Shown here one piece after another: positions 10,327-21,046 of a stretch of DNA of 25,387 bases. Source of the stretch: Actinomycetota bacterium (GTDB lineage Bacteria > Actinomycetota > Thermoleophilia > Solirubrobacterales > Solirubrobacteraceae); NCBI GenBank assembly GCA_009699615.1, contig WLNV01000001.1, positions 1-25,387 on the forward strand, written 5' to 3'. Made by a program: the position numbers and the translations under genes. The notes beneath the pieces were generated by a model, which was not told the DNA's origin, ran no database searches, and worked only from the letters and a program-made list of their open reading frames with translations. How positions within the stretch are numbered: the stretch's first letter is position 1; every line of letters starts with the position of its first letter.

Positions 10327-10423
10327 GCGAGCGGGGCGGTTGCCTGCTGCGCCGTTCCCGCGGCTTGCGTCTAGGCGCCGAGCAGCAGTCTGCGGTCCCC
10401 TGTTCTCGATAACATCAGGCTTC

Positions 10424-11155
10424 ATGATTGAGGCACGACTAAATGGTCGCTGGCGCAGCGCGCTCAGCTTGGCTCTCGCCGCCGGTGCGACGCTCGCCGT
10501 CGCGGGCTGCACCAACGATTCGTCTCCAGCACAGAGCGCGAACCTCGTCAACGGCAAGCAGCTGTTCGTCCAGAAGTGCGGCGCCTGCCACACAATGGCT
10601 CGCGCCGGCAGCAAGGGAGTGACCGGCCCCAATCTCGATGAGGCCTTCGCCAGTGCCCGCCAGGAGAACTGGGGTGACGACGGGATTCGCGGGGTCGTCT
10701 ACGGGCAGATCCTTTACCCGAACCAGAATGCACCGATGCCGGCCAATCTTGTGACCGGCCAGGACGCTTCGGACGTGGCTGCGTACGTTTCAACTGTCGC
10801 CGCAAAGCCAGGTAAGGACGTCGGCCTGCTCGCGAGCGCGGTCGCTCCAGCCGGTGGCGGCAAGCCAGCGGTTGAGAAGAACGGCGTTCTCTCGATCTCG
10901 GCCGATCCGAATGGGCAGCTGCTTTACGTCGAAACAACTGCGACCGCAACGCCTGGCCCGGTCGAATTGGAGATGCCGAACGAGTCGGGCGTCCCCCACA
11001 ACATCGTGATCGAGAACGCCGGGATCGAGACACCAGTCATCAAGAACGGTGTCGCGAAGGCTAAGGGCACACTGAAAGCCGGCACGTTCGTTTACTTCTG
11101 CGCAGTCCCTGGCCACCGCCAGGCAGGCATGGTCGGCAAGCTCACCGTTCGCTAG
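10424..11155 (+). CDS. Lipoprotein fusing a monoheme cytochrome c to a cupredoxin (type-1 blue copper) domain
   Basis: Lipobox LAVAGC, heme motif CGACH and a candidate axial Met (APMPA). Cupredoxin ligands are PHN...YFCAVPGHRQAGM. Start set at ATG 10424, with TAACAT 8 nt upstream. Confidence 0.88.
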   Translation: MIEARLNGRWRSALSLALAAGATLAVAGCTNDSSPAQSANLVNGKQLFVQKCGACHTMARAGSKGVTGPNLDEAFASARQENWGDDGIRGVVYGQILYPNQNAPMPANLVTGQDASDVAAYVSTVAAKPGKDVGLLASAVAPAGGGKPAVEKNGVLSISADPNGQLLYVETTATATPGPVELEMPNESGVPHNIVIENAGIETPVIKNGVAKAKGTLKAGTFVYFCAVPGHRQAGMVGKLTVR

Positions 11156-11331
11156 AGCGCGCGAGCTACGACGACCGCAACGATCACCAGCAGGCAGCCG
11201 CCGACCACCCAAGCGAGGGCCTTGAAGGCACCGGACTCGGTGCGCACCGGCTCAAGGATCCGCGGAGGCGCTTTCTCAGCCTCCGAGAGCCGATCTGAGT
11301 CGTCGACCGGGGTCTCGCCATCGTTGACCAC
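11152..11331 (-). CDS. Small single-pass membrane protein at the end of the ctaC-ctaD-ctaE run
   Basis: GTG start at 11331, 11 nt after the ctaE stop; acidic N-terminus and C-terminal TM helix (ALAWVVGGCLLVIVAVVVA). The track's start overlaps ctaE. Confidence 0.6.
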   Translation of the reverse strand: MVNDGETPVDDSDRLSEAEKAPPRILEPVRTESGAFKALAWVVGGCLLVIVAVVVARAL

Positions 11332-11342
11332 AGAGAGAGCGC

Positions 11343-11957
11343 TTAGAGCACGTAGATCGTCGTGAAGACGACGATCCACATTGCGTCGACGAAGTGCCAG
11401 TAGATGCCTGGAACTTCAAGGCCGCGATGATTGTTGGGGCCAACCTTGCCCTTGAAGATCCGTACCGCCGACATCCAGAGCAGTAGCAGGCCGATCACGA
11501 CGTGGGCGCCGTGAAGGCCGGTTAGGCCGAAGAAGACGGATGCCGATGCGCTTGTCTCCGGTGTGAAGCCAAGGTGCAGGTATTCGTTGATCTGAATGAA
11601 GAGGAAGGTGCAGCCGAGCAGGAAGGTTGTAACGATCCCGACCCGCATCGCCATGTCGTTGCCGCGCTTGGCCGACACATCGGTCCAGTGCATCGTCACA
11701 GAGGACGAGAGCAGAATCGCGGCGTTGATTGCAGCGACTGCGACCGGGAGACCGTCTCCAGGAGGCCAAGCATCGGAGTTAACGACGCGGATGAAGAAGT
11801 AGGCGGCAAAGAATGCTCCGAAGAGCATAATCTCGGAGATGATGAAGAGCAGGATTCCGAGTACCTCAGAGTTGACCCGGGAGCTCTGGTTGGCAGTAGG
11901 CGGCCCGTGGTGGTGATCTTCGTGTGCAGCAGGGGTGGGGATCGAAGCGGCCTCCAT
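11343..11957 (-). CDS. ctaE: Cytochrome c oxidase subunit III (short form)
   Basis: LFIISEIMLFGAFF, FFGLTGLHGAHV and YWHFVDAMW. TAATG coupling to ctaD. Confidence 0.95.
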   Translation of the reverse strand: MEAASIPTPAAHEDHHHGPPTANQSSRVNSEVLGILLFIISEIMLFGAFFAAYFFIRVVNSDAWPPGDGLPVAVAAINAAILLSSSVTMHWTDVSAKRGNDMAMRVGIVTTFLLGCTFLFIQINEYLHLGFTPETSASASVFFGLTGLHGAHVVIGLLLLWMSAVRIFKGKVGPNNHRGLEVPGIYWHFVDAMWIVVFTTIYVL

Positions 11958-13849
11958 TAGTTCTCCTCACTTGCCGCGCCGACACCCGCGGCAACGGGAG
12001 TCTCGGCCGGTTGATCGAGAATTGCGTGCACCGCTCCCGGGACGCCGTACTCGTACGGCCCGCCGACGACAGATGGAATCGAGTCGAAGTTGAAGATCGG
12101 TGGCGGCGACGAGACCTGCCATTCGATCGTCAACGAGTTCCACGGGTTGGAGCCGGCCTTCGGGCCCGAACGCCAGGACACGATCATGTTGTAGAGGAAG
12201 ATCAGCGATGCGAAGCCGAGGATGAATGAAGAGATCGAGATGATCATGTTCCACGTCGCAAACTGGTCTGCGTAGTCCGAGACCCTTCGAGGCATTCCCT
12301 GGACCCCGATCAGGTGCATCGGCGCGAACGTCACGTTGAAAAAGACGAAGGTCAGCCAGAAGTGAATCTTGCCGAGGCGCTCGTTGTACATACGACCGGT
12401 CATCTTCGGGAACCAGAAGTAGATTCCGGCCATGATCGTGAACATCGAACCACCGAAGAGGACGTAGTGGATGTGAGCGACGATGAAGTACGTGTCGCTC
12501 ACGTGAATGTCGAGCGGGACCATCGCCAGCATCACTCCCGAGATCCCGCCGAGCGTGAACATTGAGATGAAGCCGACGGCCCAAAGCATCGGCGTATCCA
12601 TCTTGATGACACCGCGCCAGAGCGTCGCGACCCACGAGAAGATCTTGATCCCGGTTGGAATCGCGATGATCGCTGTCGTGATCATCATCGGGATTCGGAT
12701 CCAGTCCGACATTCCCGAGACGAACATGTGATGGGCCCAAACGGTAAACCCGAGCAGGACGATTGCGAGCAACGAGAAAGCCATCATGCGGTAGCCGAAG
12801 ACCGGCTTTCGGGCCCGCGTCGCGAGTACCTCGCTGATGATGCCAAAGCCCGGTAAGAGCATGATGTAGACGGCCGGATGCGAGTAGAACCAGAAGACGT
12901 GCTGGTACATCAGGATGTCGCCGCCGTTGGCAGGGTTGAAGAAGTTGAAGCCAAGAGCGCGGTCGAGCAGCACCATGAACTGCGAGGCCGCGATGAATGG
13001 AGTCGCGATCACGACAAGCAGTGAGGTCGAGAAGTTTGCCCAGACCAGCAACGGCATCCGGAAGAAAGTCATCCCCGGCGCACGCATCGTGATGATCGTG
13101 ACGAGGAAGTTGAGCGCTGTGGCTATAGAGGATGCGCCGGCGAACTGCACTGCGATCGTGAAGAACGCTTGACCTATTGGTGCATCGACGGAGAGCGGCG
13201 CATAGGCCGTCCAGCCGGCAGCGAAGGAGCCTCCCGGAGCGAGGAATGACAGCAGCATCATCGTGCCGGCTACTGGCAGCATCCAGAACGAGAGCGCGTT
13301 CAGGCGCGGGAAGGCCATGTCCGGGGCGCCGATCATCAGTGGCAGCACGTAGTTGGCAATTCCAGCGAACACAGGGATCACGAACAGGAAGATCAGCAGT
13401 GTTGCGTGGATCGAGAAGACTCCGTTGTAAGTGTTCGGGTCAACGAACTGACGGCCGGGGGAGGCCAGCTCGGCGCGCACGAGCATCGCCATCAGGCCGC
13501 CGATGAACATGAAGAAGAAGGAGACGCAGATGTACTGAATGCCGATTACTTTGTGGTCTGTGTTGACCTTGAAGTAGTCACGCCAGCTCTTCGCGCCGTG
13601 GTCTGCATGGTCGTCGACAACCGTCCGTCCACTTGCCCAGCGAAGCCAGTAGTCGAAGCAACCGATGCCGCCAAGGAAGAAGAGCGGCACCATCAGCAGC
13701 GAGATCTGGAGTACCGAGGTGCCGTCGTAGACGGGGTCGACCGAAAAAGCGGCGCGCAGCCCGGTGCTGAGGCCGAGGCAGACGAGGACGCCAAGGATTG
13801 AGAACGCAAGCGCTCTGTACCAGCCTGGCTGTCGGATCTTCGCGGCCAT
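11957..13849 (-). CDS. ctaD: Cytochrome c oxidase subunit I, A2-type (YSHPxV), with an N-terminal membrane extension
   Basis: TDHKVIG, HATL, GAPDMAFPRLN, WFYSHPAVY, WAHHM, PTGIK and AHIHY. Confidence 0.96.
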   Translation of the reverse strand: MAAKIRQPGWYRALAFSILGVLVCLGLSTGLRAAFSVDPVYDGTSVLQISLLMVPLFFLGGIGCFDYWLRWASGRTVVDDHADHGAKSWRDYFKVNTDHKVIGIQYICVSFFFMFIGGLMAMLVRAELASPGRQFVDPNTYNGVFSIHATLLIFLFVIPVFAGIANYVLPLMIGAPDMAFPRLNALSFWMLPVAGTMMLLSFLAPGGSFAAGWTAYAPLSVDAPIGQAFFTIAVQFAGASSIATALNFLVTIITMRAPGMTFFRMPLLVWANFSTSLLVVIATPFIAASQFMVLLDRALGFNFFNPANGGDILMYQHVFWFYSHPAVYIMLLPGFGIISEVLATRARKPVFGYRMMAFSLLAIVLLGFTVWAHHMFVSGMSDWIRIPMMITTAIIAIPTGIKIFSWVATLWRGVIKMDTPMLWAVGFISMFTLGGISGVMLAMVPLDIHVSDTYFIVAHIHYVLFGGSMFTIMAGIYFWFPKMTGRMYNERLGKIHFWLTFVFFNVTFAPMHLIGVQGMPRRVSDYADQFATWNMIISISSFILGFASLIFLYNMIVSWRSGPKAGSNPWNSLTIEWQVSSPPPIFNFDSIPSVVGGPYEYGVPGAVHAILDQPAETPVAAGVGAASEEN

Positions 13850-13852
13850 CAG

Positions 13853-14932
13853 TTATCCCTTTCCGTGCACGCTCTGGTCAATGTATTTGACCAGAGCGGC
13901 GAGCTCTGCCTTCGTCAAAGTCGTCGCGTAGTTAGCCGGCATGATGCCCTTGCTGTAGCCCGGGACGATCTCCTTGTTGGGATCGACGATCATCTCCATG
14001 ATCGCGGCCGCGTCGTCCTTCGTGAGCATCTCATCAAGGTTTGGCCCAGTAGCCGCGGTCGTCCCAGCGGCCTTCAGCGCATGGCAGGCGCCGCAGGCCG
14101 TCGCGCCGGTTGCGGGGTTGCCGGAGACGAACAGCTTCTCTCCGGCCACATCGGCTGCTGCGCCGCCGGCCGGTGGTTTCGCGCCGGATGCGCGAGCCAG
14201 CCCTGCCATCACGGTGGCGTAGCGCTCGGCGGTCAGAACGGTGACGGTCTGCCTCATGTAGGCGTGGCCGAGCCCGCAGAGTTCGGCGCAGACGACGTCG
14301 AAGGTGCCAAGCTTCGTAGGCGTCAAGTTGTAGGTCGTAGTGATTCCGGGGACAGCGTCGACCTTGAGGCGGAAAGCGGGGACCCAGAAGTCGTGGATTA
14401 CGTCCTTCGAGCGAACATTGAACTTGACCGGCTCGTTGATCGGCAGGTAAAGGCGACCGGACTTGACCGGTCCGGCTGGAGTCTCTGTCTCGAAGTCCCA
14501 AGCAAACTGGACGCCGTTGACGTTGACGACCCGTGTTCCCTTCGCTGGGGCCGCCTGAATGTCGACGAGCAGGATCGCGGCGTAGGTCGTGAGCGCGGCG
14601 ATCACGATCGTCGGAATGATCGTCCAGATCACTTCAAGTTTCGTGCTTCCGTGAATCGGTGGTCCGTCCAGATCCTCTTCGCCCGGCTTCTGACGCCAGC
14701 GCCAGACGCTGAACAGCAACATCGTCGTGACGGCAACGAAGATCGGGACGGAGACGATCACGAGCACATCCCAGAAGGTGTCGATCATCGGCGCGACGTT
14801 TGAGCCCTGCTCCGGGAACCAGTTCAGCGCGAGCATGAAGGCAATGCCGATCGCCGATGCGACGACGATGATCGCGAGCAGCGCGATCCAGTTCTTGGCG
14901 GTTACCGCGCCCCGATGGGATTGACCAGTCAT
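13853..14932 (-). CDS. ctaC: Cytochrome c oxidase subunit II with fused C-terminal cytochrome c (caa3-type)
   Basis: LEVIWT, CuA ligands DVIHDFW...CAELCGLGHAYM, and C-terminal CGACH...IMPANY. Confidence 0.95.
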   Translation of the reverse strand: MTGQSHRGAVTAKNWIALLAIIVVASAIGIAFMLALNWFPEQGSNVAPMIDTFWDVLVIVSVPIFVAVTTMLLFSVWRWRQKPGEEDLDGPPIHGSTKLEVIWTIIPTIVIAALTTYAAILLVDIQAAPAKGTRVVNVNGVQFAWDFETETPAGPVKSGRLYLPINEPVKFNVRSKDVIHDFWVPAFRLKVDAVPGITTTYNLTPTKLGTFDVVCAELCGLGHAYMRQTVTVLTAERYATVMAGLARASGAKPPAGGAAADVAGEKLFVSGNPATGATACGACHALKAAGTTAATGPNLDEMLTKDDAAAIMEMIVDPNKEIVPGYSKGIMPANYATTLTKAELAALVKYIDQSVHGKG

Positions 14933-14941
14933 TGGCCGAGA

Positions 14942-14981
14942 AGATTACCGGTAGCCGACGACTGCAGGCGTGCTCGTCGGC
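14942..14981 (-). promoter_or_regulatory. Candidate promoter of the A2 oxidase operon: TAATCT -10 plus an 8-bp inverted repeat
   Basis: TAATCT (14942-14947) lies 9 nt before the ATG. GCCGACGA-N12-TCGTCGGC (14954-14981) flanks the expected -35 position. Confidence 0.4.
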
Positions 14982-15034
14982 GTGTTCGACGCGCAGCCGC
15001 TCATCATTCTCGGAGAGTGGTCCGGGCGCGCGAG

Positions 15035-15430
15035 CTATGCCGCTGCCGCGACTGGCGCGTCAACGTTCTCGAAAGAAGCGGAAAAGCGTCCCGCAGACCG
15101 GTAATCGGACGGAGCGGCGCCATGGCGGCGCCGGAACGCCTTGGCGAACTGCGCGGGCTGACGGTATCCGACGTTGTGGGCGATTTCACGCACCGTGAGG
15201 TCGCTCCTGATGAGCATCTCCGCAGCTCGGTCCATCCGCACGCGGGTCAGGTACTGGCGAAAGGTCGTGTTGCCTACCTCGGCGAACGCGCGTTGCAGTT
15301 GGCGACGAGAGGAGGCAACGCGCTGGGCAAGCTCGTCGAGCGTCAGCTCGCTGGCGTATTCGAGCTCGACAATCGAGCTGACTTCGCTGTAGAGCTCTGT
15401 TCGAAGGGAGATTGTTGTTGGCCTCTGCAT
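15035..15430 (-). CDS. AraC-family regulator consisting only of the double-HTH DNA-binding domain
   Basis: LTLDELA...SRRQLQRAF...RMDRAAEML...VREIAHNVGY...FAKAFRRRHGAAPSDYR; 131 aa with no sensor domain. Confidence 0.92.
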   Translation of the reverse strand: MQRPTTISLRTELYSEVSSIVELEYASELTLDELAQRVASSRRQLQRAFAEVGNTTFRQYLTRVRMDRAAEMLIRSDLTVREIAHNVGYRQPAQFAKAFRRRHGAAPSDYRSAGRFSASFENVDAPVAAAA

Positions 15431-15539
15431 CGTGAAATGGATACGGCTACGAGCGGCTCTGAGATGACGGCATCTCGCTGTAGACAGGTCGTTCTATAGG
15501 CGTTATGGTCGAATGAGCGTCGAAAGTGGAGGTTTAGCC

Positions 15540-15968
15540 ATGACGATGAAGGTCAGCGAAGCGATGAGCGAGTCGGTTCTGACGGTTGGCCCCGGCCACA
15601 CTTTGCGCGAGGTCGCGACATTGATGGCCTCGCGGCATATCGGTTCCGCCGTAGTCCACGACCCTGAGCGGCAGGGGCCGGGGATCATCACTGAGCGCGA
15701 CATCATGCTCTCGCTCGGAGCAGGCGAATCGCCTGACGAGGAGCTCGTGGCCACGCACATGGCCAGCGATGTGATCTTTGCAGCACCGGACTGGTCGCTC
15801 GATGAGGCCGCGGAAGTGATGGTTCATCACGGCTTCCGCCACCTTGTCGTCGTCGATGGCGCGGAGCTTCGCGGGATGCTGTCGATGCGCGACCTTGTGC
15901 GCTGCTACGTCGAGATCGCCTCGGCCAGTTCGGCTACGGGGCCGGCCTCAAAGACCCGCGAGGGCTAG
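15540..15968 (+). CDS. Stand-alone tandem CBS domain protein
   Basis: GIITERD and RHLVVVDGAELRGMLSMRDL. GGAGG RBS at 15528-15532 supports the start at 15540. Confidence 0.9.
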   Translation: MTMKVSEAMSESVLTVGPGHTLREVATLMASRHIGSAVVHDPERQGPGIITERDIMLSLGAGESPDEELVATHMASDVIFAAPDWSLDEAAEVMVHHGFRHLVVVDGAELRGMLSMRDLVRCYVEIASASSATGPASKTREG

Positions 15969-16195
15969 TGGTCGTTACCGCTGGGCAGTTCGCGGTGCTC
16001 GCGAACCGCGTCGCGGACCCAGCCGTAGATCGCAGCGCCCATGATCAGCACGCCGATCACGCTTAGAGGCCAGAGGCCAAGGACGCCGATCAAAAGCAGC
16101 GAGAGCCCGACGGCAACAAGGACCGGCTGAAGGCTGTCACCAGGCAGGCGGATCTTCTCTCCGGCTGGTTCGGCGCTCTGTTCCTGTTCGGTCAT
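15965..16195 (-). CDS. Small two-TM membrane protein, possible oxidase subunit IV-like accessory subunit
   Basis: 76 aa with IRLPGDSLQP followed by two hydrophobic helices; last gene of the ctaC-ctaD-ctaB run. Confidence 0.7.
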   Translation of the reverse strand: MTEQEQSAEPAGEKIRLPGDSLQPVLVAVGLSLLLIGVLGLWPLSVIGVLIMGAAIYGWVRDAVREHRELPSGNDH

Positions 16196-16302
16196 GAGAC
16201 GTAGAGCGCGGCAGCGACGAAGGAGAGGCCGAACATCACGAAACCGACCGCTGTGATCAGCAGTCCGGCGCGGTTGTTCTTGCGGGCGAGGTTCTTGTCC
16301 AT
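16192..16302 (-). CDS. 36-aa single-TM small protein (absent from the ORF track)
   Basis: Manual translation MDKNLARKNNRAGLLITAVGFVMFGLSFVAAALYVS*. It starts 16 nt after the ctaB stop and has an ATGA overlap with the next gene. Confidence 0.72.
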   Translation of the reverse strand: MDKNLARKNNRAGLLITAVGFVMFGLSFVAAALYVS

Positions 16303-16318
16303 GGTTACGTAGTGAAGC

Positions 16319-17227
16319 TTACAGCCAGACGTCGGCGACCATCGCTGCGAACAGCACGGCCAGGTAGAGAAGTGAGAAGAGATAGAGACGGAGTGCCGAG
16401 GCGCGGTCCGCCCGGCGCCTCAACTGCCAGGCCATCACGATCAGCGTCAGGCCCAGTCCGAGCGAGACGATCAGGTAGGGGACGCCGAGTCCGCCAGCAC
16501 AGAACGGGAGCTGCGAGACGGCATACAGGAGAACCGAGTAGAGCAGGATCTGCCGCCGCGTTTCGTCCTCGCCTCGGACGACAGGGAGCATCGGGATCCC
16601 GGCCGCTGCGTAGTCATCCTTCATCAGAAGGCTGAGCGCCCAGAAGTGTGGGGGAGTCCAGAAGAAGACGATGAAGAAGAGGAAGATCGCGAGGCCACTG
16701 AGCGATCCGGTTACTGCGGCCCAGCCGACTAGGGGCGGGACGGCGCCGGCAGCTCCACCCCAGATGATGTTCTGCCAAGTGTTTCGCTTTAGCAGCATCG
16801 TGTAACCGACTGCATAGCCGAGGAAACCAGCGAACGAGAGTGCTGCAGCGAGCGGGTTGACCAGCAGTGTGAGCCAGACCAGCGAGGTGGCGCCCAGGAG
16901 AAGGCCGAAGGTGAGGGCGGCGCGGGGCGATATGCGGCCTGAGGCAACGGGTCTGTCGGCCGTCCTCTCCATTAGAAGGTCAACGTCACGGTCGTACCAG
17001 TGGTTGATCGCTCCCGAGCCGCCGGCCGACATTGCCCCGCCGATCAGCGTCGCGATGATCAGCGCGATCGACGGACGCCCCGCGATCAGCATCGCGGCTA
17101 GCGTCGTAAAGAGCAGCAGGCTTTGGACCTTTGGTTTAGTCAGCGCGACGTAATCGTTGACGCGTTGCCGCGCAACAGAGGGAGCGATTGCCGCAGCTGC
17201 GCCTGGTCCTGTGACTACTTGGGCCAT
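16319..17227 (-). CDS. ctaB: Protoheme IX farnesyltransferase (heme o synthase)
   Basis: LTKPK, NHWYDRDVDLLMERTADRP, GAVPPLVGW and WTPPHFWAL. Confidence 0.97.
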   Translation of the reverse strand: MAQVVTGPGAAAAIAPSVARQRVNDYVALTKPKVQSLLLFTTLAAMLIAGRPSIALIIATLIGGAMSAGGSGAINHWYDRDVDLLMERTADRPVASGRISPRAALTFGLLLGATSLVWLTLLVNPLAAALSFAGFLGYAVGYTMLLKRNTWQNIIWGGAAGAVPPLVGWAAVTGSLSGLAIFLFFIVFFWTPPHFWALSLLMKDDYAAAGIPMLPVVRGEDETRRQILLYSVLLYAVSQLPFCAGGLGVPYLIVSLGLGLTLIVMAWQLRRRADRASALRLYLFSLLYLAVLFAAMVADVWL

Positions 17228-17238
17228 CGCGGAACTCT

Positions 17239-18933
17239 CTAACTCCCGGCGCCTACGCCGGCTTCTTCGCCTACGCGATCCTGACGTTCAATCTGGCGGC
17301 GAATGTCCTGCATCGGCTCAACAGAGCGGACGCGCGGAACGACGTCGAAGTTGTTGACAGGCGGCGGTGACGGGGTGAACCACTCGAGTGTGTTCCCGCG
17401 CCATGGGTCGGGACCGGCCTTCGCGCCGTTCTTGAGGCTCTGGAGGATGTTGATGATTGTCAGGAGCACGCCGAGTGCGAGGATGAACGAGCCGATCGTC
17501 GAGATCATGTTGTAGAGCCCAAGGTTGTTGACGTCGGCGTACTCATAGACGCGCCGCGGCATGCCGCTGAGGCCGGCTGAGTGCTGAATCAGGAAGGTGA
17601 TCCAGAAGCCGCCGAGCGTCAGCGCGAAGCTGACCTTGCCGAGCTTCTCGTTCATCATCCGGCCCGTCATCTTCGGGAACCAGTAGTAGAGCCCGGCCAT
17701 CATCGCGAAGACTGCACCGCCGACGATCGTGTAGTGGAAGTGCGCGACGACGAAGTAGGTGTCGTGCAGCTGCCAGTCGACCGGGAACGTCGCCAGGAAG
17801 ATGCCCGTGATCCCTCCGAGCAGGAAGGTCGCAAGGAAGCCGATCGCGTAAAGCATCGCGACCGGGAATTCGATTGCTCCGCGCCACATCGTGAAGACCC
17901 AGTTGAAGATCTTGACTCCGGTTGGGATCGCAACCAAGTAGGTGCCGAGCATGAAGAAGATCATCAGGAAGAACGGCAGTGGCACTGTGAACATGTGGTG
18001 CGCCCAGACCAGCGTGCCGATCACGGCGATGCCCAGAGTGGCGGCGACGATTGCCTTGTAGCCAAAGATCGGCTTGCGCGAGAAGACCGGGAGGATCTCG
18101 GAGATGACTCCGAAGCCCGGCAGGACGAGGATGTAGACCTCGGGGTGGCCGAAGAACCAGAACAGGTGCTGCCAGAGCAGCGGTGAACCGCCGTTTGACG
18201 GGTCGTAGAAGTGGGTTCCGAAGTGGCGGTCGGTAAGCAGCAGCGTCACTGCACCGGCGATTACCGGGATCGAAATGATCAGCAGGATTGCCTGCGTCAG
18301 CATCGTCCAGACGAATAGCGGGACACGGCCCCAGCTCATCCCTGGGGCGCGCATGTTGGTGACGGTTACGAAGATGTTGAGTGCGCCGACGAATGACGAG
18401 ACGCCGACGAGGTGCACGAGGAAGATCCAAGAGTCGACGCCGTTCGATGGCGAGAAGGCGGTTTCGGAGAGAGGTGCGTAACAGGTCCATCCACACTCAG
18501 CCGGGCTGAAGAGCAGCGAGCCGTAGAAGACAAGGCCACCGGCGATGAAGAGCCAGAGTCCGAGCGCGTTGAGCTTCGGGAAAGCCATGTCGCGGGCGCC
18601 GATCATTAGCGGCACGGTGTAGTTGGCGATGCCGGCGATCATTGGCATCAGGAAGAGGAAGACCATCGTCGTGCCGTGCATCGTGAAGAGCGCGTTATAG
18701 GTCTGCGGCGAGAGCAGCGTGTTGTCCGGTACCGCGAGTTGGAGGCGAATCAGTAGCGCTTCGACGCCGCCGATCACGAGGAACATCCAGGAGGCGACGA
18801 TGTACATGATCCCGATCCGCTTGTGGTCGGTGCTCATCAGCCACGAGAGCCAGCCAGTTGGCCGGGGCGCCGCGGAGCTGGCAACCAGTTCAGGGATTCC
18901 TTGTGTCGTCGGGGCGGCGCTGGTCGTTGTCAT
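17239..18933 (-). CDS. ctaD: Cytochrome c oxidase subunit I, A1-type (GHPEV)
   Basis: STDHKRIG, MHGTTM, GARDMAFPKLN, WFFGHPEVY, WAHHM, PTGVK and AHFHY. Confidence 0.97.
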   Translation of the reverse strand: MTTTSAAPTTQGIPELVASSAAPRPTGWLSWLMSTDHKRIGIMYIVASWMFLVIGGVEALLIRLQLAVPDNTLLSPQTYNALFTMHGTTMVFLFLMPMIAGIANYTVPLMIGARDMAFPKLNALGLWLFIAGGLVFYGSLLFSPAECGWTCYAPLSETAFSPSNGVDSWIFLVHLVGVSSFVGALNIFVTVTNMRAPGMSWGRVPLFVWTMLTQAILLIISIPVIAGAVTLLLTDRHFGTHFYDPSNGGSPLLWQHLFWFFGHPEVYILVLPGFGVISEILPVFSRKPIFGYKAIVAATLGIAVIGTLVWAHHMFTVPLPFFLMIFFMLGTYLVAIPTGVKIFNWVFTMWRGAIEFPVAMLYAIGFLATFLLGGITGIFLATFPVDWQLHDTYFVVAHFHYTIVGGAVFAMMAGLYYWFPKMTGRMMNEKLGKVSFALTLGGFWITFLIQHSAGLSGMPRRVYEYADVNNLGLYNMISTIGSFILALGVLLTIINILQSLKNGAKAGPDPWRGNTLEWFTPSPPPVNNFDVVPRVRSVEPMQDIRRQIERQDRVGEEAGVGAGS

Positions 18934-18940
18934 CTGCTGA

Positions 18941-20179
18941 TCACTTTCCGTTTACGGCTTGATCGACGTATTTCACGAGAGCGTCAAGTTGCGCCTTGGT
19001 AAGCGAGGTTCCGTAGTTGGCCGGCATGATGTTCGCTGCGAAGCCCTTTGAGAGGATCGCGTTCGGGTTGAGGATCGACGCCTTGATCATCGCTGCGCTC
19101 TGACCCTTCAGAATCGCATCGAGCGAGGGTCCGACGGCAGCGTTGGTTCCGGCATCCTTCAGCGTGTGGCAGGAACCGCAGGCCAGTGCGCCTGTGGCCG
19201 GTACACCTGCAACGAAGATCTCCTTGCCGTCGACAGCGGCAACTGGGGCTGCTGGAGCTGCAGCATCTTTCGGTGCGGCCTTGAGCGCCGCTGCGTCCTT
19301 GGCGACCAGCGCGTTGCGGGCCGTGGCAGCCTCTTTCTCGGATGCCACGATTGCGGCCTTCTGCGCCGCGTACCAGAGCTTGAACTCTGCCGGTGAGACT
19401 GCCTTGACCGAGGCGACCATCGTCGCATGCCCTCGGCCGCAGAGTTCTGCGCACTGGCCGTCATAGACGCCAGGCTTGGTGATCTTGAACCACGTGTAGT
19501 TGGTGTATCCCGGAACGGCGTCAAACTTCCCGCCGAGCTCGGGGATCCACCACGAGTGCTGAACATCCTGAGCACGGATACTGAGACTGATCGTCGTGTT
19601 CGTCGGCACGACCATCTGCTCGTAAGAGAAAACGTTGTTGAGGTTGTTGGTGTCGGTGTCGGCGTATGTGTAGCGCCAGATGTACTGCTGACCGTTGACG
19701 TCGATGTTGAGCGAGCGGCCGTTCGGCGGCAGTGATGGTTTCGCAGGACCAGTGTTGAAGGAGATGTTCTGCGGTGTCGCTAGGCCGTTCGCGCTCGAGT
19801 TTGGCGGGTTCTTGATCTGGTCGAGCTTGAGGAAAGTGACTACAGAGATCAGGACCAGCAGTAGTGCAGCTCCGACTGTCCAACCAACTTCTAGACGGTT
19901 GTTGCCGCGAACCTGCTCTGCCACCGCCCCGGTGCTCGCGCGGTAGCGAACCAGGGTCCAGACGATCAGGCCGCCGACGCCGAAGAAGACGACGCAACCA
20001 AGTCCGAAGATCAGCAGGTAGAGCGAGCGGATCGCTTCGGCGTTCGGAGTGCCGCCGCCGGACTCGGGGGCGATCACGCCAGCGAACGCACCCGCGGCAG
20101 GGATCAGGAGCGCGGCGGTCACGACGATCCCGAAGAGGATGCCGTTCTTGGCTGGGCGAGGAGTCATCGGGAAGCGCAC
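18941..20179 (-). CDS. ctaC: Cytochrome c oxidase subunit II with fused C-terminal cytochrome c (caa3-type), second copy
   Basis: LEVGWT, DVQHSWW...CAELCGRGHATM, an Ala/Lys linker and CGSCH...IMPANY. Start is GTG 20179 or ATG 20167. Confidence 0.95.
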   Translation of the reverse strand: MRFPMTPRPAKNGILFGIVVTAALLIPAAGAFAGVIAPESGGGTPNAEAIRSLYLLIFGLGCVVFFGVGGLIVWTLVRYRASTGAVAEQVRGNNRLEVGWTVGAALLLVLISVVTFLKLDQIKNPPNSSANGLATPQNISFNTGPAKPSLPPNGRSLNIDVNGQQYIWRYTYADTDTNNLNNVFSYEQMVVPTNTTISLSIRAQDVQHSWWIPELGGKFDAVPGYTNYTWFKITKPGVYDGQCAELCGRGHATMVASVKAVSPAEFKLWYAAQKAAIVASEKEAATARNALVAKDAAALKAAPKDAAAPAAPVAAVDGKEIFVAGVPATGALACGSCHTLKDAGTNAAVGPSLDAILKGQSAAMIKASILNPNAILSKGFAANIMPANYGTSLTKAQLDALVKYVDQAVNGK

Positions 20180-20189
20180 GGGAAAGCCA

Positions 20190-20195
20190 ATCCTA
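20190..20195 (-). promoter_or_regulatory. Putative -10 box (TAGGAT) of the A1 oxidase operon
   Basis: TAnnnT in an AT-rich patch, 10 nt before GTG 20179. Confidence 0.45.
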
Positions 20196-20224: not shown

Positions 20225-21046
20225 TCAGCGCCCGGTGAAGGATGTCTCTCGTTTTTCGATGAACGCGAGCACGCCTTCGGCGAAGTCGGCGCTCTCAACC
20301 ATCTCCTGTTGGATCGACGCTTCGAGCGCAAGCTGGGCGTCCAGCGAGCCGTAAACCCAACTGTTGATCTGCCGCTTTGTTCCGGCGTACGAGAGAGTCG
20401 GGCCCGATGCCAGCCGTTCCGCAAGTCCGTCAATCCAGTCGTCAAAGAGGTCGCGCTCGACTGTGCCGTTGATCAGTCCCCACTCCGCCGCCTTGATCGC
20501 GTCGACTCTTTCCCCAAGCATCGCCATCTCGGCCGCTCGCGCCGCGCCGACACGTGCCGGAATGAACGCCGACGAACCACCGTCGGGTACAAGTCCGATG
20601 TTCACGAACGCGAGCAGGAAGTAGGCGTCTGGCGTTGCGTAGACGAGATCAGCGCACAGTGCCAGCGACAGTCCTACACCCGCACAGGGTCCCTGCACCG
20701 CGCTGATGACCGGCTTCGGGAGGTTGCGCAAGCCGGTGATGACCGGGTGGTAGTTCTCGTGGAGCGCTCGTTCGAGGTCCGGCTTGCCGTCGGGGGTTGT
20801 GAGCCCGCCGGCTGCGCCGTCTTTCAAGTCGGCTCCGGAGCAGAAGGCTCGGCCCGTGGCTGCGATCACGACAGCCCTGACGTCATCGTCGTCGCGGACA
20901 GCCTCTACGGCGGCGAACAGGTCCTTGCTCATCTGACCGTTCCAAGCATTGAGCGAGTCGGGACGGTTCAGCTCGATCTTCGCCGCACCTCCCGCTCGGA
21001 GCAGATTGACGGTTTCAAACTCGGTCTCGATCTCAAACTTGGGCAT
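20225..21046 (-). CDS. Enoyl-CoA hydratase/isomerase family protein (PaaG-like)
   Basis: AFCSGADL, ISAVQGPCAGVGLSLALCAD, IGLVPDGG and DFAEGVLAFIEKR. Confidence 0.92.
   Translation of the reverse strand: MPKFEIETEFETVNLLRAGGAAKIELNRPDSLNAWNGQMSKDLFAAVEAVRDDDDVRAVVIAATGRAFCSGADLKDGAAGGLTTPDGKPDLERALHENYHPVITGLRNLPKPVISAVQGPCAGVGLSLALCADLVYATPDAYFLLAFVNIGLVPDGGSSAFIPARVGAARAAEMAMLGERVDAIKAAEWGLINGTVERDLFDDWIDGLAERLASGPTLSYAGTKRQINSWVYGSLDAQLALEASIQQEMVESADFAEGVLAFIEKRETSFTGR

Follow-up and report, generated by a model that had tools for sequence, protein, structure and literature searches.

A conserved island with two A-family cytochrome c oxidases

The 25.4-kb stretch analyzed here (contig WLNV01000001.1, "the window") is an entire contig of a 1.74-Mb freshwater metagenome-assembled genome (MAG) in 257 contigs that is 77% complete, and it carries two ctaC-ctaD pairs, the genes for subunits II and I of heme-copper oxidases. 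We consider it likely that this region represents a conserved respiratory island of the Solirubrobacteraceae with genes for two distinct proton-pumping cytochrome c oxidases of the A family, both intact and related to each other as old paralogues. One of them, the A2 enzyme, would be a full-core oxidase composed of subunit I, a subunit II with a fused cytochrome c (IIc), and a subunit III split over two genes. The other, the A1-locus enzyme, would consist of subunits I and IIc together with small subunits, and would lack helices 3–7 of subunit III. Several terminal oxidases in one genome, as well as the co-occurrence of A1 and A2 enzymes, are already well known, and the presence of two oxidases as such is therefore not surprising. 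What is unusual here is the combination of tandem A-family paralogues, a subunit III apparently split across operons, one enzyme probably without most of subunit III, and the recent capture of a cytochrome c domain.

Both pairs lie on the minus strand (Table 1), and their placement on one strand with 2.3 kb between them is as a first-pass annotation of the sequence had described; the single ctaE, the single ctaB, the AraC-family gene, the CBS gene, and the two small membrane open reading frames (ORFs) that it listed, here of 36 and 76 amino acids (aa), are likewise all present. Unit 1 has the gene order ctaC-ctaD(FGHPEVY)-ctaB-36 aa-76 aa, and unit 2 comprises an araC-like gene followed by ctaC-ctaD(YSHPAVY, 14 helices)-ctaE-59 aa. 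The two units are separated by the CBS-pair gene on the opposite strand. The same order, from enoyl-CoA hydratase via ctaC, ctaD, ctaB, the small ORFs, CBS, AraC, ctaC, ctaD, and ctaE to a cytochrome c-cupredoxin gene, recurs in relatives (loci L016–L026), including the isolate Solirubrobacter taibaiensis KCTC 29222. In this isolate, an insertion of 4.3 kb follows ctaB, and the A1 subunit II has no cytochrome c domain. It was found in at least 12 congeners and in all five other high-quality genomes of the Solirubrobacteraceae (5/5), so that the pairing of the two oxidase sets is conserved across the family, including cultured Solirubrobacter.

The two subunits I are intact and fall into separate clades

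Subunit I of the A1 set carries the motif FGHPEVY (residues 261–267, positions 18133–18153) and subunit I of the A2 set carries YSHPAVY (residues 322–328, positions 12866–12886), exactly where the first-pass annotation had placed them. The A1 subfamily is defined by XGHPEVY with the D-channel Glu, and the A2 subfamily by YSHPXVY, in which Tyr-Ser takes the place of this Glu (PMC8361435). By this definition, the protein encoded at 17239–18933 is of the A1 type and the one at 11957–13849 of the A2 type. Both score above the curated cut-off of 670.75 bits of the CtaD_CoxA model TIGR02891. In the alignment, both show the signature HDN..H.YHH.KHH with all six His ligands and the cross-link Tyr, i.e., the A-family set of two His for heme a, one for heme a3, and three for CuB, plus the His-Tyr pair of helix VI. 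The D-channel Asp and the K-channel Lys are also retained in both (the A2 protein reads GAPDMAF and PTGIKIF, the A1 protein GARDMAF and PTGVKIF), in agreement with the earlier view that both subunits I look intact.

The two subunits I of the window are only ~48% identical to each other. In a tree of 85 sequences, the A2 subunit I belongs to a Thermoleophilia clade (support 100*) together with 22 other A2 sequences from Solirubrobacterales, Gaiellales, and Thermoleophilaceae, all of which read YSHPAVY. The A1 subunit I is found in a separate clade (support 99–100*), which we term the A1 locus. A grouping of both proteins within one subfamily, which would have spoken against the initial assignment, was hence not observed. 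The low identity and the separate clades rule out a recent tandem duplication of ctaD, and the description of the locus as "not a simple duplication" is upheld; the two subunits I appear to be old paralogues. In comparisons with congeners, the ratio of nonsynonymous to synonymous substitution rates (dN/dS) was 0.12–0.14 for the A2 ctaD and 0.20–0.26 for the A1 ctaD, with a dN of the A1 gene of ~1.6 times that of the A2 gene. These values indicate that both oxidase sets are under purifying selection.

The A2 subunit I has an additional N-terminal extension (residues 1–95, positions 13565–13849) which contributes two extra helices. It is conserved throughout Thermoleophilia, where its motifs G-x-G-x-FDYW and DHxxHGAxSWxDY are invariant, and had no match in Pfam. 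A relationship to the family of the 76-aa protein was considered and rejected (hhalign probability of 2%). The cluster of His and Asp residues within the extension could represent a metal site.

A subunit III apparently split over two genes in different operons

The ctaE gene encodes a five-helix subunit III that corresponds to helices 3–7. It is joined to the A2 ctaD by a TAATG overlap (11955–11959) and is the sole COX3 gene in the window's genome; since this genome is incomplete, the count of one ctaE was also checked in near-complete and closed relatives. Helices 1 and 2 are matched by the CtaF-like 76-aa protein of unit 1. The 76-aa protein alone gave no match to solved structures (phmmer), and only a profile built from 19 orthologs and searched against solved structures reached CtaF and subunit III. 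This profile matches residues 78–125 of actinobacterial CtaF, subunit III of the bovine and Rhodobacter oxidases (residues 5–66), the additional helices at the C termini of QoxB and CyoB, and residues 547–597 of the Thermus I+III fusion, and thereby the helix 1–2 element of subunit III in five kinds of solved oxidases. In mycobacteria, CtaE and CtaF jointly make up subunit III (PMC8361435). As CtaE covers helices 3–7 and the 76-aa protein would be the equivalent of helices 1–2, one subunit III appears to be split over two genes in different operons. With regard to the three-subunit core, one five-helix CtaE and one two-helix piece are available for two enzymes. Of the two small membrane ORFs of the first-pass annotation, the one for the 76-aa protein would encode part of subunit III, namely the part that could be shared.

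To which of the two enzymes CtaE belongs is indicated by its distribution. Among 41 relatives, COX3 occurs only in genomes with an A2 ctaD, and always directly downstream of it. A congener with a 99% complete genome (G022; L112, G022:C15:119000-133000) still has the A1 set together with ctaB and the genes for the 76-aa and AraC proteins; ctaC and ctaD of the A2 set, ctaE, the CBS gene, and the cytochrome c-cupredoxin gene are cleanly lost from this genome, and it contains no COX3. Neither an A2 set of the Thermoleophilia type nor COX3 was found in a second genome, G029 (84% complete). Since COX3 co-varies with the A2 ctaD, CtaE would belong to the A2 enzyme, and the earlier suggestion that ctaE is a part shared by both oxidases is not supported by the 41 relatives. 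Because G022 and G029 have no COX3, we infer that the A1-locus enzyme does without helices 3–7 of subunit III. In model enzymes, experimental removal of subunit III leads to suicide inactivation (PMC8361435).

The junction of ctaD and ctaE in the A2 set also differs between the window and its relatives. A gene for a 278-aa tandem universal-stress-protein (USP)-like protein is located between them in every relative examined (L016:11911-12747, L005–L015), one of which shows 93% identity. Neither the window nor the rest of its genome has this gene, and ctaD and ctaE meet in the TAATG overlap. At loci of Gaiellales and of some Solirubrobacterales, the USP domain comes after ctaE instead and is fused to a small membrane helix with the motif RxExxAF.

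The D-channel motif is labile at the A1 locus

The ortholog of the A1-locus ctaD in G029 (L109, G029:C5:623852-625414) is 59% identical to the A1 ctaD of the window and lies in the same synteny, but reads YSHPAVY instead of FGHPEVY. As the residues flanking this motif stay of the A1-locus type, the state of the motif was flipped from Glu to Tyr-Ser by three point substitutions. Gene conversion as the origin of the Tyr-Ser motif was considered as well and is ruled out by the same flanking residues. In view of this flip, the difference between Glu and Tyr-Ser is labile here and marks no deep divide in this group, and it is probably not what chiefly sets the two enzymes apart in function. Of the proposal that the locus combines two proton-pathway types, the different D-channel motifs remain, and the functional significance attached to them is weakened.

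The A1 subunit II has captured a cytochrome c domain

Both subunits II contain the CuA motif CxExCx3Hx2M and a C-terminal CxxCH/Met domain, as is characteristic of caa3-type oxidases. Both match the Pfam families COX2, COX2_TM, and Cytochrom_C and exceed the cut-off of 147.7 for TIGR02866. The two proteins are 32% identical overall and 58% identical in the cytochrome c domain. Among the ctaC orthologs of the A1 locus, this domain is restricted to the window, L016, and G002; all other A1-locus subunits II, including those of the congeners L017 and G022, stop right after the CuA domain and are of the aa3 type. In a tree of the domain, the three A1 cytochrome c domains nest among the A2 domains of the same genus, with support that is only moderate (82/95, 110 columns). 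This restricted occurrence and the nesting among A2 domains suggest that the "A1-type caa3" oxidase is a young, sub-genus invention. The cytochrome c domain of the A1 subunit II appears to be a recent gain inside the genus, and its most likely source is a copy of the neighboring A2 ctaC. Hence, the first-pass description of two caa3 oxidases is correct for the window, where both subunits II carry a cytochrome c, and on the A1 locus it extends no further than L016 and G002.

Two putative transcription units and the possibility of a switch

From the spacing of the genes we infer two transcription units. The genes of the A1 unit are separated by gaps of 7, 11 (ctaD to ctaB), and 16 nt and one 4-nt overlap. 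A stretch of 102 nt separates the AraC gene from the A2 ctaC downstream of it, and a GGTAATnT element just before the start codon of this ctaC is conserved in 5/6 relatives. Unit 2 would have its own promoter region downstream of the AraC gene, whose product consists of the helix-turn-helix (HTH) part only. Unit 1 holds ctaB, the single match for this gene in the window's own genome, where ctaA is found on contig C84. As ctaB, and with it the supply of heme A, lies in the A1 unit, unit 1 would have to be on whenever either of the two oxidases is made. With the only ctaB inside the A1 operon, the A2 enzyme would most likely supplement the A1 enzyme and not be swapped for it. A single ctaB, to which the first-pass annotation had pointed, is the normal state, since the ctaB product is an enzyme.

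The same annotation had proposed a switchable terminal-oxidase module. Spelled out, the two catalytic pairs would take turns, with the single CtaE and CtaB in common, and AraC and CBS would choose between a Glu-type and a Tyr-Ser-type pathway. We regard such a switch as rather unlikely, although parts of the locus would suit it. The single ctaE and ctaB, seen in the window's genome and also in closed relatives, could point to common parts, but CtaE co-varies with the A2 set alone, the A1 set persists without COX3 in G022, and with ctaB embedded in the A1 operon, production of the A2 enzyme would require the A1 unit to be on. Parts might be shared to some extent, given that the 76-aa piece of subunit III is encoded in another operon than CtaE. 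A regulator gene and a nucleotide-sensing CBS pair between the two sets would be in line with a switch, but family f3 has both sets and no AraC gene, and G022 retains this gene after loss of the A2 set. Moreover, the two states between which the module would choose were interchanged within the A1-locus lineage by only three substitutions.

Our preferred reading, two separate enzymes with a split subunit III on the A2 side, has several points against it. Taken singly, the matches between the 76-aa profile and subunit III are weak, with E values from 0.001 to 0.2. A complex prediction for the A2 CtaD, CtaE, and the 76-aa protein, folded without alignments, returned a score of 0.00 and weighs neither way on binding. 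The absence of CtaE from the A1-locus enzyme is derived from the gene content of G022 and G029, and the nesting of the captured cytochrome c domains has the moderate support mentioned above. Operons, promoters, and any regulation are deduced from gene spacing and one conserved upstream element, and a generic scan for sigma-70 promoters and terminators gave no more matches than shuffled controls.

A cofactor-less pseudo-oxidase occupies the A1 position in sister families

In many members of other Solirubrobacterales families, an altered gene pair stands where the window has its A1 set (L036:18145-19821, minus strand, and ~28 further loci, L028–L071 and L116–L121). These loci encode an intact subunit I homologue of ~545 aa that lacks all six His ligands as well as the Tyr and the Asp and Lys of the D and K channels, and a subunit II homologue of ~236 aa without CuA and without cytochrome c. 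After the altered pair, ctaB, the two-helix gene, and CBS are retained, and in the 85-sequence tree the 29 cofactor-less sequences form clades sister to the intact A1-locus clade. The altered pair represents a conserved, cofactor-less pseudo-oxidase.

It could be argued that the A1 set of the window is itself losing function, as an early stage of the decay in the sister families, and that the A2 enzyme is the only working heme-copper oxidase. We consider this very improbable. The cofactor-less sequences do form the sister clades of the A1-locus clade, in the same synteny position, yet all ligand and channel residues of the A1 set in the window are intact. Likewise, the dN of its ctaD is ~1.6 times that of the A2 gene, but its dN/dS of 0.20–0.26 argues against decay. 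And the A1 set lacks helices 3–7 of subunit III, but it belongs to a lineage whose subunit II recently gained a cytochrome c domain, and G022 retained the A1 set and discarded the A2 set.

A more far-reaching possibility, which we put forward only tentatively and hold to be less probable than its contrary, is that the A1-locus oxidase works without helices 3–7 of subunit III and shares the two-helix fragment and the heme O synthase with the A2 enzyme. The relatives would then represent a series that leads from a full oxidase via an enzyme with most of subunit III missing and the Glu/Tyr-Ser flip to the cofactor-less pseudo-oxidase. The family comprises natural variants of one oxidase locus (Glu, Tyr-Ser, with or without fused cytochrome c, without helices 3–7, and cofactor-less), and this variant series provides comparative material for the roles of the D-channel terminus and of subunit III. 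Annotation pipelines would call all such loci "cytochrome c oxidase", and would overlook the split subunit III as well as the dead paralogues of the sister families.

The arrangement of the locus is supported by Logan contigs from single lake-metagenome runs of three different studies. The two oxidase sets are bridged by contigs from X2 (positions 13307–17595), X3 (13304–17233), and X1 (14355–17233), and further contigs from X1 and X2 span the junction between the A2 ctaD and ctaE. That the oxidase operons of two organisms were joined in a chimera of assembly or binning, as the 257 contigs of the MAG, the breaks of short-read contigs within the conserved parts of COX1, and a small number of Logan contigs with low-depth cross-joints of one ctaD to the other might suggest, is refuted for practical purposes by the bridging contigs of single runs from different studies that join the A2 to the A1 ctaD, the identical gene order in closed and isolate genomes, and the even GC content over the stretch.

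A probable Bacillus-like respiratory chain

As noted in the first-pass annotation, the window holds no qcr genes. A search of the genome for a bc complex detected a cluster on contig C46 (G000, C46:6266-8493; L102) with a Rieske protein, a split cytochrome b6, and a subunit IV fused to a monoheme cytochrome c, which adjoins ubiE/menG, a polyprenyl synthase gene, and the heme genes ahbAB and hemB. This cluster is Bacillus-like and does not correspond to the QcrCAB of model actinobacteria. Genes for a cytochrome bd oxidase are located elsewhere in the genome. The NCBIfam models for the actinobacterial aa3 oxidase remained below their cut-offs (NF050116, 596 and 645 vs. 880; NF050117, 141 and 112 vs. 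250; NF050119, 126 vs. 190). None of the hallmarks of a bcc-aa3 supercomplex, i.e., a diheme QcrC, an unsplit QcrB, a CtaC without cytochrome c, and scores above the NCBIfam cut-offs, was found, which substantiates the earlier statement that the locus is unlike the standard actinobacterial bcc-aa3 arrangement.

The C46 cluster, together with the low scores of the actinobacterial models, indicates that the chain resembles the b6c plus caa3 chain of Bacillus. Electrons would be transferred from menaquinol to the Rieske/b6/subunit IV-cytochrome c complex, and the lipoprotein cytochrome c-cupredoxin fusion, a plausible electron carrier, may pass them on to the cytochrome c domains of both subunits II. 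Thermoleophilia would accordingly respire via a Bacillus-like b6c plus caa3 chain, not via the textbook actinobacterial bcc-aa3 supercomplex.

Comparison with known oxidases

Bacillus subtilis harbors a QcrABC b6c complex and a caa3 oxidase, CtaCDEF, plus a second A-family oxidase, aa3-600. The genome of the window resembles it in that a Rieske/b6/subunit IV-cytochrome c complex would feed a caa3 oxidase and that two A-family oxidases are encoded per genome. The second A-family oxidase of Bacillus, however, is a quinol oxidase that is encoded at a distant locus and has its own subunit III. In contrast, the window encodes its two oxidases in tandem; both use cytochrome c, and helices 3–7 of subunit III would be present in just one.

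The caa3 oxidase of Thermus thermophilus (PDB 2YEV), the structural reference for A2 enzymes (PMC8509429, PMC8361435), shares with the A2 enzyme the replacement of the D-channel Glu by Tyr-Ser, the cytochrome c fused to subunit II, the presence of subunit III, and small extra helices, and matches the A2 subunit I of the window with E = 9e-149. Unlike in Thermus, where subunits I and III form one chain, subunit III of the window appears to be split into the five-helix CtaE and a two-helix protein encoded in the neighboring operon. The clade-specific two-helix extension at the N terminus of the A2 subunit I is a further difference.

The best matches to solved structures for both subunits I are the actinobacterial aa3 oxidases of C. 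glutamicum (7Q21) and M. smegmatis (6ADQ/6HWH), with E = 1e-164 and 4e-169. As in these enzymes, subunit III appears to be split into CtaE (helices 3–7) and a CtaF-type piece (PMC8361435), but the CtaF-like protein of the window consists of the C-terminal two helices only. Also unlike in the actinobacterial aa3 oxidases, both subunits II of the window carry a cytochrome c, and in place of QcrCAB with its diheme QcrC, the window's genome has a split b6 and a monoheme subunit IV-cytochrome c fusion.

A1 and A2 oxidases coexist in genomes of, e.g., Acidithiobacillia, where, as in our case, both subfamilies occur in one lineage and heme A genes are linked to oxidase clusters; in that group, however, the A1 enzymes oxidize quinol and do not lie next to the A2 cluster (PMC8528912). 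A literature search on oxidases of Thermoleophilia or Solirubrobacterales yielded nothing specific.

Accessory and flanking genes

Table 1. Genes of the oxidase island and its borders, with positions in the window, strand, and supporting matches or motifs.
Feature	Position	Strand	Matches and motifs
Class I cytochrome c + type-1 cupredoxin fusion	10340..11155	+	Pfam Cytochrom_C, Copper-bind; LAVAGC lipobox, CGACH, CxxPGHx4M
59-aa single-helix protein after ctaE	11152..11331	-	Motif RxExxAF, then helix, read from sequence
ctaE, five-helix subunit III (helices 3-7)	11343..11957	-	PF00510 122 bits, profile positions 78-255/258
ctaD of A2 set	11957..13849	-	630 aa, YSHPAVY, 95-aa N-terminal extension; TIGR02891 687.2 bits
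ctaC of A2 set	13853..14932	-	CuA, C-terminal cytochrome c domain (CGACH); TIGR02866 173.7 bits
AraC-family protein, 131 aa, DNA-binding domain only	15035..15430	-	Pfam HTH_18 88.5 bits, residues 34-112
Stand-alone CBS-pair protein	15513..15968	+	Pfam CBS x2, E = 5e-24
76-aa two-helix CtaF-like protein	15965..16195	-	Motif HLPGxSxxP; PF12270 27.4 bits, positions 70-128
36-aa single-helix microprotein	16192..16302	-	ATGA overlap onto 76-aa gene
ctaB, heme O synthase	16319..17227	-	NF003349 362 bits, TIGR01473 335.7 bits
ctaD of A1 set	17239..18933	-	564 aa, 12 helices, FGHPEVY; TIGR02891 706.6 bits
ctaC of A1 set	18941..20179	-	CuA, Ala-rich linker, cytochrome c domain (CGSCH, IMPAN); TIGR02866 169.5
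Enoyl-CoA hydratase	20225-21046	-	Ends 45 nt upstream of ctaC of A1 set

The AraC-family protein is of the MarA/SoxS type, with two HTH motifs and no ligand or dimerization domain, and its orthologs within the Solirubrobacteraceae are 61–78% identical. The CBS gene and the A1 operon are convergent, and 82 nt lie between the CBS gene and the AraC gene, which diverge; the position of the CBS gene is conserved across the order. The 36-aa ORF is conserved in L016, L017, L018, L019, L021, L022, and L025 with a dN/dS of 0.28–0.40, and the combination of RxExxAF and a helix after ctaE is also found in L016, L122, L119, L120, L036, L037, and L031. The gene for the cytochrome c-cupredoxin fusion is convergent with the A2 operon; it is conserved beside ctaE in the Solirubrobacteraceae and has weaker homologues in Gaiellales. 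On the other side of the island, the enoyl-CoA hydratase gene beside the A1 ctaC is kept in at least four families of the order and may be co-transcribed with the oxidase.

Two observations concern other public contigs. In L021 (L021:7447-13374), the A2 ctaD is present twice, 4 kb apart and with a partial ctaE in between, which is either a real tandem duplication or an artefact of long-read assembly. The contigs L025 and L076, which encode proteins with 95% and 80% identity to the A2 subunit I of the window, are filed as Bifidobacterium MAGs; with their Solirubrobacteraceae oxidase genes, they are probably binning contaminants or mislabelled.

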